A DNA stretch of 64,000 nucleotides from Escherichia phage UGKSEcP2, in sequence record OV876900. One strand, written 5' to 3'. Under the pieces are notes generated by a model that made no database searches, was not told where the DNA came from, and saw only the letters and a program-made list of their open reading frames with translations. Positions 15,514 through 21,067 of this stretch are shown one piece after another (position 1 is the first letter of the stretch; every line of letters begins with the position of its first letter). The position numbers and the translations under genes are program-made.

Positions 15514-16518
15514 TTAACTTACCAATTCAATCCAAGCCGGACGAAGTACATCTTGTACCATTTTAACTAATTCCTTCTTAATCAAAGAAGGATTATCCGC
15601 TTGAGTTAGAGTAATACCTTCACGAGAAGTTTCTTCCAAAATATCTTGAACAGTTAGTCCCATCACCTTTCCAAAATCTTTTGGACCAATTTCACCAATT
15701 TTAGAAATAACGTTATTTACTCGGTTCAGTGTAACGTAACAAGCTAAAATTCCAACCAATTTGTTATCAGCTTCTGACAGTTCAACTTTAGCTTTAATAG
15801 GCTTATCAGACTTTTTCTTTTCACTAAATTTAGAGTTCTTGTATTTGATAGCTACGCGATTGCCATTAGGCATCCAAGAAGGATAACAAGGTTTCAATAC
15901 ATATCCTTCAGCGGTAAATACTTCGCCTTTTGCTTCAGCATTCCAAACGCATTTATTTGCATCAACTAATCCAGCATGGTCTACCGTAAAATTATAATCC
16001 TGGACGACAGAATCTAAATCATTTGGCAATTTAATAAGCTCTTCAAATTTACCGCGACCTAAAAGTGGAGCCATTTTAAATTTAAATGTATTGCAGAATG
16101 ATTCCATCATATAATCATCGACATAAGTCACATCACCACTTTCTGTAGTAACAATAATGTCAAATACATAAAAATCTTTATCGCCATAATCGACATTCTT
16201 CTGAATGCCAGGTCCGGCGAATTCACCGAAGACTTGATAAGATACAACTGCTGAAGTTTCCATAATATCTTGTACTGCTTTAATGGAATCAGAGTAATTC
16301 TTCAAAATAATTTCATACCCAAAGAAATCTTCAGCAGGAAGAATAAGACCAGTGCGTTTAGCACAAGTTACTTTATCACGCTCAATAATTAATGAGAAAT
16401 TTGTGCCATGAATCTTTTCACGAGCTACCCATTCGCCGCCAGTCAATCCTAAACTGTAAAGTTTTTCAATGAATTTAGAATTGTAATGATTTTCAAGACT
16501 GCTATACTTTTTAAACAT
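15514..16518 (-). CDS. rnlB: RNA ligase 2 (Rnl2)
   Basis: 334 aa; N-terminus [14 protein letters not shown] and nucleotidyltransferase lysine motif region EKIHGTNF match recalled T4 Rnl2. Confidence 0.9.
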
Positions 16519-17007: not shown

Positions 17008-17067
17008 GTTATCGAGTTGATGCCATTATATACATCATTTTCTGAGTATGTTTTGTGTGCTTTCAAA

Positions 17068-17092
17068 ATGAAGAAAGGGGCCGAAGCCCCTT
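17068..17092 (-). terminator. terminator hairpin downstream of hoc
   Basis: ggggc-cgaa-gcccc with U-rich tract on minus strand; same hairpin motif recurs at 37901..37917. Confidence 0.55.
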
Positions 17093-17102
17093 ATGATTAT
17101 GA

Positions 17103-18815
17103 TTATGGATAGGTATAGATGATACCAGTTTCTAAAGCAGTTTTATGAATGATGTATCCATTACGTGATTCTTGAACATCAACTTCTGGATAGTCTTTCA
17201 TCATCTTCTGAAGAGTGTAACGATGCAGGTAGTATTTACTGTCTGGATCTTCAGTTTTCCAATCTTTACCTTCTTCGGTCATTTTTTGGATTTCATCCAT
17301 AACCCACCAACCGCACCAGATATAAGCTGAAGTACGATGTGGAAGAGGATGAACATAAGGCAATTCACCTTCTGGTTCCGGAGCAACTTTATCAGTTACC
17401 TGAACTTGGCCTGTTGCTTTAACTGTTTTACTATCATAGTCGGTTGCTGTAACGACAGCAGTAACTTCAATAGTTTGACTTCCAATAGATGAGGTGTCAA
17501 CGGTGTATACGTTAGTTGACCCTTCTACAGGAGAAGAATCTTTCTTCCATGAATAAGTAATTTGTGCTGCTTCAGGTGCTCCAGTAACATTAGCCGTAAA
17601 TGTAGCCGAAGCATCTTGCTGAACGTTAATAGAAGGAGGAGTCAATGTAACCTGTGGATTCATTGTCTTCTTATTAACTGTCAATGATACTTCATTAGAA
17701 GTAACTTCCTTTTCATTGTAATTTTCAGCCGTTACTTGGGCTACACACTTAACTGTTTTAGCTCCAACTGTGGTAGGAGTATAGTTAAATGTAGTAGTAG
17801 TTTCTCCATCGACCAGAGAACCGTCAACATACCACTGATACGTAGCAGACGCTCCTGGTGGCTGTGAAGCCAAGGCAGCAGTAAATTGAACTGGGGTTCC
17901 AATTACCCCGGCAGCAGGATTAGCAGGAGTTACGGCTAACGTAGTTGTCTGTGTTTTCTTATTAACTGTTAATGATACTTCATTAGAAGTAACTGTTTTT
18001 GCGTCATAATCTGTTGCTGTTACTTGCGCTACGCATTTAATTCTTTTTACTCCACTTGCAGTTGGAGTATAGCTAAATGTAGCAGAAGTCGCTTCACCAA
18101 TTTGAGAATCATCTACATACCACTGATACGTAGCAGATGCCCCATCAGGTTGAGAAGCTAAGGCAGCAGTAAATTCAACGGCTGTTCCAATCACTCCAGC
18201 TGGAGGACTATCAGGAGTTACTGCCAAGGTAGTCGTCTGCGTCTTTTTATTAACAGTCAATGATACTTCATTAGAAGTAACGCTTAGTGCATCATAATCT
18301 GCCGCAGTTACTTGAGCTACACACTTGATTTTTTTAACTCCGCTTGTGTCAGGAGTGTAATTGAATGTAGCGTCAGTTGCTTCGTCTACAGGAGAACCGT
18401 CAACGTGCCATTGATACGTAGCGTTTGCACCTGATGGCTGTGAAGCTAAGGCAGCGGTAAATTCAATTGGAGTTCCAATCACGCCAGCATCAGGGCTACC
18501 AGGAGTTACAGCTAAAGTAGTTGTTTGTGTCTTATTTTGAACTGTGATAGTTGTCGTAGTTTCTGCTGTTTCAGGTTCAGCTTCAGATTCTGGAACTGTA
18601 TTTGTTGCAACTACTTTAATAGTCTTTTGACCTGCAGGTCCTTTTAGTACATAGCTAAAAGTTGCTTCAGCTCCATCCTGTGGAACATTATCTACACTCC
18701 AAGCATAGGTAATAGTTCCACCTTCAGTTTGACCACTGGGTGTAGCAGTAAACTGCTTGGTTTCATCAATAACTCCTGTTGGGGTTTTAGGAGTTATATC
18801 AACTGTAAAAGTCAT
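17103..18815 (-). CDS. hoc: Hoc outer capsid decoration protein, extended form with three tandem Ig-like repeats
   Basis: 570 aa; N-terminus MTFTVDITPKTPTGVIDETKQF and C-terminal capsid-binding region match recalled T4 Hoc; three tandem 96-aa units between. Confidence 0.9.
   Translation of the reverse strand: MTFTVDITPKTPTGVIDETKQFTATPSGQTEGGTITYAWSVDNVPQDGAEATFSYVLKGPAGQKTIKVVATNTVPESEAEPETAETTTTITVQNKTQTTTLAVTPGSPDAGVIGTPIEFTAALASQPSGANATYQWHVDGSPVDEATDATFNYTPDTSGVKKIKCVAQVTAADYDALSVTSNEVSLTVNKKTQTTTLAVTPDSPPAGVIGTAVEFTAALASQPDGASATYQWYVDDSQIGEATSATFSYTPTASGVKRIKCVAQVTATDYDAKTVTSNEVSLTVNKKTQTTTLAVTPANPAAGVIGTPVQFTAALASQPPGASATYQWYVDGSLVDGETTTTFNYTPTTVGAKTVKCVAQVTAENYNEKEVTSNEVSLTVNKKTMNPQVTLTPPSINVQQDASATFTANVTGAPEAAQITYSWKKDSSPVEGSTNVYTVDTSSIGSQTIEVTAVVTATDYDSKTVKATGQVQVTDKVAPEPEGELPYVHPLPHRTSAYIWCGWWVMDEIQKMTEEGKDWKTEDPDSKYYLHRYTLQKMMKDYPEVDVQESRNGYIIHKTALETGIIYTYP
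17667..18530 (-). repeat. three tandem 288-bp direct repeats inside hoc, each encoding one 96-aa Ig-like unit
   Basis: Protein units TQTTTLAVTP...NEVSLTVNKK repeated three times; DNA unit boundaries at 18242/18243 and 17954/17955. Confidence 0.85.
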
Positions 18816-18824
18816 AAGTTATCC

Positions 18825-19505
18825 TTATTTTAATGTTACGAAAGAAGAATTGCGTGTTTCACGAATTAGAACTGATCCGTCACGATTAATGTAGTAAATT
18901 AAGCTAAATAAAGTTTGATGCGCAGACGCATGTTCAAAACTGGTTGGGCGAGATTTCCAATCTGGAGTTTCAGCAATCCATTGGTAAATCCACCAAGGAA
19001 CAGTGCAGAATCCTGGATTTTTTCCAATCAGCTGAAGATTTGGGCTAAAGTTTTCCGGAAGAGTAAATACAGACGGCTTTTCAGATTCAATAATCTCAGC
19101 TACAGCCTGCTCGAATTTTTCTTCAACAAAAGGAGTATCTTCAATCAAAACATCAGTATTTTCAGGAATTTTATCCATTTCTACTACTTCAATTTTAATG
19201 TCAGATTTAACCGGAGAATCAATCAGAAGTGCTGCCTCTGGATTGACTTCTTCATCGTCATATTTTAATCCGTCTGCGGCATCAGCAGCATCGATTAAGT
19301 CTTTAATAGATAACCCATCAGTCTCTGGCATAGGTTCACTAGCGAGCTTCTGGAGGGCTTCTTCAATATCATTAACGATATTATCAAAAGATTTATTCTT
19401 TTTGACCTTTATACCAAACTGTTCAGCATATTCAGCTAATTTAGCTTTAGCTTCTTTATTATCATCAAGAGCCTTCAGCTCTGCAATATAATCTTTATCT
19501 ATCAT
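18825..19505 (-). CDS. inh: inhibitor of prohead protease (Inh)
   Basis: 226 aa; position between hoc and uvsW as in T4. Confidence 0.7.
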   Translation of the reverse strand: MIDKDYIAELKALDDNKEAKAKLAEYAEQFGIKVKKNKSFDNIVNDIEEALQKLASEPMPETDGLSIKDLIDAADAADGLKYDDEEVNPEAALLIDSPVKSDIKIEVVEMDKIPENTDVLIEDTPFVEEKFEQAVAEIIESEKPSVFTLPENFSPNLQLIGKNPGFCTVPWWIYQWIAETPDWKSRPTSFEHASAHQTLFSLIYYINRDGSVLIRETRNSSFVTLK

Positions 19506-19518
19506 AATATTTCCTCAG

Positions 19519-19526
19519 TATAAATA
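19519..19526 (+). promoter_or_regulatory. late promoter TATAAATA for uvsW
   Basis: Exact TATAAATA about 30 nt upstream of ATG. Confidence 0.6.
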
Positions 19527-19555
19527 TAGATATATTTATTACATGGTATTTAGAC

Positions 19556-21067
19556 ATGACTGACATTAAAGTACATTTTTATGATTTTAGTCACGTGAGA
19601 ATTGATTGTGAAGAAAGTACATTTCATGAACTCCGTGATTTCTTTAGCTTTGAAGCTGATGGGTATCGTTTTAATCCGAAGTACAAATATGGTCACTGGG
19701 ATGGACGAATTCGTCTTTTAGATTATAATCGCCTTCTTCCATTCGGTTTAGTCGGGCAAATTAAAAAGTTCTGTGATAACTTTGGCTATAAAGTCTGGAT
19801 TGACCCGCAAATTAACGAAAAAGAAGAATTATCAAGAAAAGATTTTGATGAATGGCTTTCTAAATTAGAAATCTATTCAGGAAATAAAAGAATTGAACCG
19901 CATTGGTATCAAAAAGATGCAGTGTTCGAAGGATTAGTTAATCGTCGTAGAATTCTTAATCTTCCAACATCCGCAGGTAAATCTTTAATTCAAGCTTTGC
20001 TTGCTCGGTATTATTTGGAAAATTATGAAGGCAAAATTCTTATCATTGTTCCAACAACTGCTCTGACAACTCAAATGGCTGATGACTTTGTTGACTATCG
20101 TTTATTCAGTCATGCAATGATAAAGAAAATCGGCGGTGGAGCATCAAAAGATGATAAATATAAAAATGATGCACCAGTCGTTGTTGGTACATGGCAAACT
20201 GTAGTAAAACAACCAAAAGAATGGTTCTCACAGTTTGGAATGATGATGAATGATGAATGTCATCTTGCTACAGGAAAAAGTATTTCATCTATCATATCAG
20301 GTTTAAATAACTGTATGTTTAAATTTGGTTTGTCTGGTTCATTGCGCGATGGCAAAGCTAATATCATGCAGTATGTTGGAATGTTCGGTGAAATATTTAA
20401 GCCAGTAACGACCTCTAAATTAATGGAAGATGGACAAGTAACTGAGTTAAAAATTAATAGTATTTTTCTTCGCTATCCCGATGAGTTCACTACTAAATTA
20501 AAGGGAAAAACTTACCAAGAAGAAATAAAAATTATTACTGGGCTCAGTAAAAGAAATAAATGGATCGCTAAATTAGCTATTAAGCTTGCGCAAAAAGATG
20601 AAAATGCTTTTGTCATGTTTAAACACGTATCGCACGGTAAAGCTATTTTCGATTTAATTAAAAATGAATACGATAAAGTTTATTACGTATCAGGGGAAGT
20701 TGATACCGAAACCCGCAATGTAATGAAAACCTTAGCTGAAAACGGTAAAGGAATAATTATAGTAGCTAGTTATGGTGTATTTTCTACTGGTATTTCAGTT
20801 AAAAATCTGCATCACGTTGTTTTAGCACACGGTGTTAAATCTAAAATTATTGTATTGCAAACAATAGGTCGCGTATTACGTAAGCATGGTTCTAAAACAA
20901 TCGCAACAGTCTGGGACCTCATAGATGATTGCGGTGTTAAGCCAAAATCTGCTAATACGAAAAAGAAATACGTTCATTTGAACTATCTTTTAAAACACGG
21001 CATTGATCGTATTCAGCGCTACGCAGATGAAAAATTTAATTACGTAATGAAAACAGTTAATTTATAA
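19556..21067 (+). CDS. uvsW: UvsW RNA-DNA / DNA helicase
   Basis: 503 aa; helicase motifs (NLPTSAGKS Walker A, DECH box); matches recalled T4 UvsW. Confidence 0.93.
   Translation: MTDIKVHFYDFSHVRIDCEESTFHELRDFFSFEADGYRFNPKYKYGHWDGRIRLLDYNRLLPFGLVGQIKKFCDNFGYKVWIDPQINEKEELSRKDFDEWLSKLEIYSGNKRIEPHWYQKDAVFEGLVNRRRILNLPTSAGKSLIQALLARYYLENYEGKILIIVPTTALTTQMADDFVDYRLFSHAMIKKIGGGASKDDKYKNDAPVVVGTWQTVVKQPKEWFSQFGMMMNDECHLATGKSISSIISGLNNCMFKFGLSGSLRDGKANIMQYVGMFGEIFKPVTTSKLMEDGQVTELKINSIFLRYPDEFTTKLKGKTYQEEIKIITGLSKRNKWIAKLAIKLAQKDENAFVMFKHVSHGKAIFDLIKNEYDKVYYVSGEVDTETRNVMKTLAENGKGIIIVASYGVFSTGISVKNLHHVVLAHGVKSKIIVLQTIGRVLRKHGSKTIATVWDLIDDCGVKPKSANTKKKYVHLNYLLKHGIDRIQRYADEKFNYVMKTVNL

Follow-up and report, generated by a model that had tools for sequence, protein, structure and literature searches.

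The subject of this analysis is the hoc gene of Escherichia phage UGKSEcP2 (sequence record OV876900), which lies within a stretch of 64,000 nucleotides, here called the window. Its coding sequence (CDS; 17103..18815, minus strand) specifies the highly immunogenic outer capsid, or head decoration, protein as an open reading frame (ORF) of 570 amino acids (aa) and a stop codon, and it holds three in-frame units of 96 aa (residues 96-383; 3 x 288 base pairs (bp), 17667-18530) with no insertions or deletions between the units. The evidence below makes it very probable that this gene is an intact three-cassette allele of an ordered, recombining array of D2, the immunoglobulin (Ig)-like domain that is present as a single unit in phage T4 Hoc.

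The hoc locus and its repeat array

Tandem Repeats Finder placed the array at 17664-18545 (period 288, 3.1 copies, 77% matches, score 985), and a separate repeat search of the window also returned three copies at a spacing of 288 bp. Counted from the N-terminus, and all on the minus strand, unit 1 (18243..18530; aa 96-191), a D2-type Ig/PKD-like domain which we call cassette A, is followed by unit 2 or cassette B (17955..18242; aa 192-287), the closest of the three to the single D2 of T4 with 89% DNA identity, and by unit 3 or cassette C (17667..17954; aa 288-383). All three units start with TQTTTLAVTP and end with SNEVSLTVNKK. When the array was compared with itself, in-register identity was 76% at a shift of 288 and 79% at a shift of 576, against 25% (standard deviation 4%) at other shifts and a maximum of 32% among 1000 shuffles; no further copy of the unit was found in the rest of the 64-kb window. 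The residue span and common boundaries of the three 96-aa units given in an earlier note on this DNA proved exact by translation and by the repeat finders, whereas the high DNA identity that it ascribed to them did not hold up: identity between units is 75-79% for DNA and 74-80% for protein, with third codon positions accounting for most of the differences, and the longest stretch of exact in-register identity between units is 23-26 bp (GTTACTTCTAATGAAGTATCATT, near the unit 3' end).

The 570-aa product matches T4 Hoc (376 aa, 1131 bp; PDB 5vf3_Z; NC_000866 110187..111317) with E = 1.4e-254, its residues 1-192 aligning with T4 1-190 and its residues 290-570 with T4 96-376 (538 bits), and it combines a capsid-binding domain, an N-terminal Ig-like string and a position between 24.3 and inh, all of which are features of Hoc. 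The ORF and the two T4 entries agree with the lengths that the earlier note had compared, and T4 Hoc, with 376 aa and a single unit, does differ from the window protein in length and repeat number. The protein is 100% identical to a deposited entry, 'Hoc-like head decoration [Escherichia phage UGKSEcP2]', and the gene is 99.7% identical at the DNA level to that of Escherichia phage UGKSEcP1; the hoc sequence of UGKSEcP2 is thus already public and correctly named.

The gene order in the window is rnlB (15514-16518), 24.2, 24.3, hoc, inh (18825-19505, adjacent to hoc) and uvsW (19556-21067, beyond inh), and the T4 order is the same around hoc. As read from the sequence, the expression signals of hoc are intact: the Shine-Dalgarno motif AAGGA (18822..18826, minus strand) stands 6 nt before the ATG and overlaps the inh stop codon, and a terminator-like hairpin, GGGGC-TTCG-GCCCC with a UUCG tetraloop and then a T-rich run (17065..17090, minus strand), lies 13 nt past the hoc stop codon and ahead of gene 24.3. 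A terminator is annotated after hoc in the record of Yersinia phage fPS-90. On its opposite strand, hoc contains no ORF of 60 aa or more. The homing-endonuclease gene segE, which in T4 lies between inh and uvsW (NC_000866 112057-112674), is absent from the window and from UGKSEcP1, and the inh-uvsW gap is 50 bp (19506-19555); the presence or absence of segE beside hoc could affect local recombination and co-conversion.

Domain architecture and predicted fold

Outside the units the protein is T4-like, as had been supposed, and its alignment with T4 Hoc extends over the N-terminal domain, the distal Ig domain and the capsid-binding C-terminus. Domain 1 (D1), N-terminal and Ig-like (aa 1-95; 18531..18815, minus strand), aligns with T4 Hoc 1-93; domain 3 (D3), the capsid-proximal Ig-like domain (aa 384-476; 17388..17666, minus strand), has I-set and Ig_3 matches and corresponds to T4 190-282; and the capsid-binding domain at the C-terminus (aa 477-570 and stop; 17103..17387, minus strand) is near-identical to T4 Hoc 283-376. 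In this last domain of ~95 aa, two positions differ from T4 Hoc (aa 283-376), PYVHPLPHR, WCGWW and QESRNG are all kept, and the residues reported to contact gp23 in Hoc (YxH, R300, WW309-310, D313 and ESRNG355-359; PMC10385173) are present as a set.

Pfam placed PKD, Ig_2, Ig_3 and I-set above the gathering cut-off on the protein. A hidden Markov model (HMM) built from the three units scored the units themselves at 182-188 bits and D1 and D3 at 33-36 bits, and D1 and D3 falling so far below the units argues that the extra modules are D2-type rather than foreign. AlphaFold2, given an alignment of 36 sequences, returned a model with a mean predicted local distance difference test (pLDDT) score of 83.6 and five all-beta domains (1-95, 96-191, 192-287, 288-383 and 384-476) in blocks mostly of 85-94, among them a beta-sandwich for D1 (pLDDT ~83-91) and a confident beta-sandwich for D3. 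A Foldseek search of the PDB with the whole five-domain model retrieved Ig/MG strings (complement C3, CEA, Dscam and ICAM, among others) at E ~1e-14 with template modelling (TM) scores of 0.14-0.21, which are low because inter-domain angles differ; this result supports a string of Ig-like domains and no more specific identity. Pfam, the unit HMM and AlphaFold2 all agree with the earlier count of five Ig-like domains against three in T4, and in the window Hoc as predicted, D1 is followed by three domains of the D2 type and then by D3, with the capsid-binding domain unchanged.

An acidic loop of D1 carries an indel of 6 bp or 2 aa (~18575-18600; aa ~74-80), with VPESEAEPETAE in the window and L--SEGGPETAE in T4. 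Through this indel the Hoc of UGKSEcP1 is 568 aa long and that of the window 570 aa, and the resulting 285-bp form of D1 is common to the window, LF73P3 and wV7.

Unit number among related phages

Among the best 120 protein clusters, Hoc length classes correspond exactly to unit counts: 80 clusters of 376-379 aa have one unit, 31 clusters of 439, 468 or 472 aa have two, and 8 clusters of 568-570 aa have three, while a single cluster of 567 aa has two units scored as D2-type and five Ig-like domains in total, the extra ones being more diverged. None longer than 570 aa is listed there, and alleles of 664 aa were found via the nucleotide collection only, so that this protein census is incomplete. 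In the GenBank phage collection, hoc was matched in 680 records, and 60 rows spread evenly over this ranking yielded 52 classifiable genes, with one unit in 32 (~60%), two in 19 (~37%) and three in 1. The three-unit gene of ~1707 bp occurs in at least 15 records from ~14 phages (UGKSEcP1, KMB26, EC101, YUEEL01, TOPO13, ECML-123-2, OMNI12, ESh16/26/34/36, T4_ev151, vB_Eco_EL, where it is disrupted, and A6-6), and a four-unit gene of 1995 bp or 664 aa in 7 records (Escherichia phage slur03/08/14, vB_EcoM_FJ1 and Shigella phage Sfk20); none longer than four units was seen among the GenBank matches. The window allele is therefore uncommon, though it is not unique and is exceeded in length by others of the genus, and unit number accounts for the 376-, 472-, 568-570- and 664-aa classes of Hoc length found in databases.

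A scan of IMG/VR gave four close loci, three with one unit and one with two, a number too small for a census. Distant T4-like IMG/VR contigs encode Hoc proteins of 282, 367-377, 471-472 and 996 aa, with 47-71% identity in the D3/D4 anchor, and these lengths imply that other Tevenvirinae lineages have gained or lost ~95-aa Ig-like domains in parallel. Several Tequatrovirus records (vB_Eco_EL, OZ034682; FriedrichMiescher, MZ501066; PM107, MZ234042; UPWr_E2, PP418986; UFV05, OP572230) carry hoc as two or more CDS, labelled for instance 'Hoc part 1 / part 2', or with a span that is 1 or 31 bp off (1418, 1420 or 1738 bp), the disrupted gene of vB_Eco_EL being found at 301-2038 of the extracted locus. 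Such split genes could reflect either genuine frameshifting of a dispensable gene or errors in sequencing. The taxonomy lines of HP3 (NC_041919; Rosemountvirus) and mobillu (MN850622; Mosigvirus) conflict with their Tequatrovirus-like hoc loci, which are 87-90% identical to that of the window and have the same gene order, and this mismatch points to database errors or mosaic genomes.

Cassette types, their order and their age

When 41 units, taken from 18 phages, were clustered with a DNA distance of 12%, they separated into cassette types with 91-97% identity within a type and 73-87% between types. The longest array, that of slur03, reads A-D-B-C; the window, UGKSEcP1, KMB26, ESh16 and ESh26 have A-B-C, T4_ev151 has A-D-C and A6-6 has F-D-B; the two-unit arrays are A-B in phiD1, A-C in HP3, ECP2301 and Killian, F-E in mobillu and G-E in wV7; and the sole unit is C in LF73P3 and Ec_MI-02, E in T4 and H in RB32. 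Cassette order was collinear in all of these 18 phages. Among the best 120 clusters, the A family stands first in 8/8 three-unit and 31/32 two-unit proteins and is otherwise the sole unit, and in the multi-unit proteins it is never second or third. Cassette A of the window has copies at least 95% identical to it in 53 records, cassette B in 22 and cassette C in 41. The closest counterparts, 99.3-99.7% identical, include cassettes of phages with two units (A and B in phiD1, C in Killian), and cassette C, the sole unit of Ec_MI-02, is the second unit of Killian, ECP2301 and HP3.

Between the window units, the synonymous divergence (dS) is 0.63-1.30 and the ratio of nonsynonymous to synonymous divergence (dN/dS) is 0.10-0.25, the former exceeding the dS of the flanking domains, window against T4 (0.47 for D3 and 0.23 for D4), which indicates that the copies predate the divergence of these hoc alleles. 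Each unit is maintained under purifying selection, and the highly variable residues lie mostly between predicted strands. The array is thus best described, from these substitution patterns, as an old, selectively maintained set of three distinct cassettes, A-B-C. The module had been described earlier as triplicated, and the perfectly in-register boundaries and conserved unit ends are what a recent triplication of a T4-like D2 within this lineage, through slippage or unequal crossing-over of identical copies, would leave behind. Such an origin is nevertheless very improbable, as the dS between units (0.6-1.3) is higher than that of the flanking domains when window and T4 are compared, orthologues 99% identical to each unit occur at the matching array position of other phages, and the cassette types are common to arrays of one, two, three and four units. 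Recent triplication was rejected on the grounds that the units cluster by cassette type across phages and not by genome, and that their dS is high.

The same divergence bears on the assembly of the record. SPAdes alone was used to assemble UGKSEcP1 and UGKSEcP2, from Illumina 2x250 reads (PMC11317518), and a short-read assembler might have inflated the repeat count. However, with units 21-25% divergent and exact sharing of at most 26 bp, an assembler could not have confused them; three units recur in 15 records from ~14 phages of different countries and laboratories; and the reading frame is intact, with purifying selection on each unit. The divergence of the units, together with ~14 independently assembled three-unit genomes, effectively refutes an assembly artefact, and we regard its probability as negligible.

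Footprints of recombination

Each unit was painted, that is, compared piecewise with reference cassettes, and several relatives proved to carry hybrid units, with 0-3 mismatches in each hybrid segment of Killian, T4_ev151 and HP3. Unit 1 of Killian consists of A (bp 1-224; 1 mismatch) and B (bp 225-288; 0 mismatches) and is followed by C, which is the exact product of losing one 288-bp register from A-B-C. Unit 2 of T4_ev151 consists of D (bp 1-216; 0 mismatches) and B (bp 217-288; 0 mismatches), as would result from a 4-to-3 contraction of A-D-B-C. In HP3, unit 1 is A (bp 1-239) joined to B (bp 240-288), and unit 2 is C with an internal B-type patch.

LF73P3 offers the most telling case of a copy-number change on a near-identical backbone. 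In D1 (at the DNA level) and in D3 it is 100% identical to the window, and its 300-bp flanks are 98% and 99.7% identical, yet it has one unit. This unit equals window unit 1 over bp 1-31, is of the unit 3 type from bp 32 to ~216 (3 mismatches), being identical to window unit 3 over bp 97 to ~224, and carries a patch of the unit 2 type at ~225-250.

The window allele is itself a mosaic, since its cassettes and flanks match different phages: A is 99.7% and B 99.3% identical to the cassettes of phiD1 and KMB26, whose D1 is just 86-92% identical to that of the window, and C is 99.3% identical to the C of Killian. Within unit 2, bp 60-288 correspond to the B unit of slur03/FJ1 with 2 mismatches, whereas bp 1-59 differ from cassette D of the four-unit arrays by 3-7 mismatches, or 3-6 for slur03/FJ1, and from their cassette B by 8-13. 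This distribution suggests that the window array A-B-C may have arisen by contraction of A-D-B-C.

The single D2 of T4 (hoc at 1688-2818 of the extracted locus) is a patchwork at lower identity, composed of C (1-67), B (68-101), D (102-158), B (159-210) and A (211-288), the second and third pieces having 0 mismatches. The T4 reference Hoc may itself have descended from recombination among multi-cassette arrays.

Discussion

In-frame units with identical boundaries, differences in copy number among relatives that share cassettes, and hybrid units at the junctions were all found, as would be expected of a tandem cassette array. That the copy number of this module can alter by recombination, as the earlier note proposed, agrees with the series of one to four units and with the chimeric junction units in relatives. 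We propose that D2 in Tequatrovirus consists of between one and four tandem 288-bp cassettes, which have diverged and stand in the fixed order A, D, B, C, and that the length of this array shifts by in-register homologous recombination between cassettes, either unequal crossing-over or gene conversion. Such exchange would most plausibly take place between co-infecting phages or replicating genomes, with crossover sites in short conserved stretches, chiefly around the unit ends. The recombinant junctions, the collinear order, the copy-number series, purifying selection, the anatomy and the predicted fold are results of the analysis; the crossover mechanism is inferred.

The direction of change could be viewed in two ways. 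It is possible, although somewhat unlikely, that A-B-C was built by expansion, through unequal crossing-over of shorter alleles (e.g., a phiD1-like A-B and a Killian-like A-C) in mixed infection. The window allele is clearly mosaic in a manner that would fit such an event, with A and B near phiD1, C near Killian, and D1 and D3 matching LF73P3, and unequal crossing-over yields reciprocal products, so that expansions must happen. On the other hand, all of the clean chimeras found are of the deletion type, window unit 2 looks like the D/B hybrid that a 4-to-3 contraction predicts, and the simplest way to account for strict collinearity with position-specific cassette families is that the arrays descend from a long one. 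Expansion and contraction are not mutually exclusive and can both hold; the footprints actually observed are of the contraction type.

Several points weigh against an ordered, recombining array as the account of this gene, or limit how far it extends. Perfect homology between the units of the window genome is just 23-26 bp, so that intragenomic expansion or contraction is probably rare and rapid slippage unlikely. The painting references include the window's own units, and the ~20 phages were picked by similarity, so sampling could account for part of the collinearity. As to the direction in which the window array changed, the mismatches over bp 1-59 of unit 2 are no more than suggestive. The confidence of AlphaFold2 in the C-terminal domain is low (pLDDT 41-64), and the expression, capsid incorporation and fibre length proposed for the UGKSEcP2 Hoc are predictions from the sequence. 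Changes to the array would more likely arise during mixed infection and recombination-dependent replication, as the general biology of T4 suggests. With these points taken into account, we still regard an intact three-cassette allele of a recombining D2 array as very probable.

What the additional units might do can be considered from the known properties of Hoc. Because the capsid anchor is unchanged, the window Hoc should sit on gp23 hexamers like T4 Hoc; a single copy of Hoc attaches to the middle of every gp23 hexamer of the mature capsid. The T4 fibre is ~180 Å long (PMC10385173), and two extra Ig domains at ~4 nm each would, by estimate, extend it from ~18 nm to ~26 nm. Binding of mucin glycans (MUC2/fucose) by Hoc Ig-like domains has been described for T4, PhiPNJ-6 and PhiPNJ-9 (PMC9271167; PMC11853027), and the PhiPNJ-9 Hoc binds MUC2 through D2 in a manner that requires S183/L184/T185 in T4/PNJ-9 numbering (PMC11853027). 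The motif NEVSLT is present in all three window units (aa 182-187, 278-283 and 374-379), which makes a higher mucin valency conceivable. It sits in the last beta-strand, which is the most conserved part of the unit, and may be conserved for structural reasons and not for ligand binding. A longer and more multivalent fibre, presenting the surface of D2 three times, could plausibly change adherence to mucus or cells, or antigenicity.

It is quite possible, if somewhat doubtful, that copy number is instead a length polymorphism close to neutral, in a decoration protein that the phage can do without, and has no effect on adhesion. Hoc is dispensable and hoc non-essential (PMC10580926), the gene is seemingly frameshifted or split in vB_Eco_EL, FriedrichMiescher and PM107, and one-unit alleles dominate. 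Neutrality is harder to reconcile with the signature of purifying selection on every cassette (dN/dS 0.10-0.25), with multi-unit alleles in ~40% of sampled records, with variable residues placed mostly between predicted strands and with the reported binding of MUC2 by D2 of a related Hoc (PMC11853027). A further proposal, which we consider rather unlikely, is that the D2 array would be a selected rheostat of length and valency, in which cassette number (1-4) and type (A to E and others) would tune the reach of Hoc, its binding of mucin or epithelial glycans, or its recognition by antibodies, with switching via in-register recombination in mixed infection. If true, the array would be the equivalent in phages of the variable repeat numbers of bacterial adhesins, and near-isogenic pairs such as LF73P3 (one unit) and UGKSEcP1/P2 (three) would make the mucus-adherence model testable for fibre length.

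Hoc is the protein invoked for the adherence of phage to mucus, and T4 nanoparticle vaccines use it as their main scaffold for display. Naturally occurring alleles with one, two, three and four D2 units on near-identical backbones are a ready allelic series for studies of mucus adherence, aggregation, immunogenicity and display capacity, and the 3-Ig Hoc of T4 represents one state among several at a polymorphic locus.

Relation to known systems

The variable number of Ig domains in Hoc has already been published and the gene already deposited; the window allele is real but fairly ordinary, and the surprise it holds is modest. The paper on UGKSEcP1/P2 makes no mention of Hoc (PMC11317518). A Tequatrovirus series of one to four D2 units with a fixed order and clean junctions was not found in the literature searched, and an earlier mention in Sathaliyawala 2010 or Fokine 2011 is possible.

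Tandem Ig-like or similar domains vary in repeat number in bacterial surface adhesins (Alp/Rib, SasG/Aap and Bap), and de Jonge et al. in 2019 reportedly described tandem repeats of BACON domains in crAss-like phages. Such arrays resemble that of Hoc in being in-frame tandem beta-sandwich modules whose number is altered by homologous recombination, which changes the reach of a surface fibre, and the likeness is one of analogy alone. The repeats of bacterial adhesins are often near-identical in DNA and change at high frequency, whereas the Hoc cassettes are 21-25% diverged, so that changes should be infrequent and arise for the most part between genomes.

The closest comparison is with T4 Hoc (376 aa; PDB 5vf3, 8t1x), which is like the window protein in gene, locus and domain types and in the end-to-end alignment of D1, D3 and the capsid-binding domain, and unlike it in having one D2 unit (cassette E) rather than three; the window further differs from T4 by the 2-aa insertion in D1 and by the absence of segE downstream of inh. 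The 664-aa Hoc proteins of slur03/08/14, FJ1 and Sfk20 contain the A, B and C types in the order of the window, with cassette D in addition between A and B. More widely, Hoc homologues carry variable strings of 1 to 10 Ig-like domains (Fokine et al., 2023; PMC10385173), from a single one in Enterobacter phage PG7 to the ten of the 1174-aa Hoc of Serratia phage Muldoon, which has a second Hoc with two (PMC10385173), and the PhiPNJ-9 Hoc is a 2-Ig variant without D3 (PMC11853027). The window protein shares with these homologues a conserved C-terminal capsid anchor and a variable number of Ig-like domains, and differs from them in that the variation lies within one genus, on near-identical backbones and in one domain, D2, with a fixed cassette order and visible junctions. 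This comparative cassette pattern is a modest and useful addition to what is known of Hoc.

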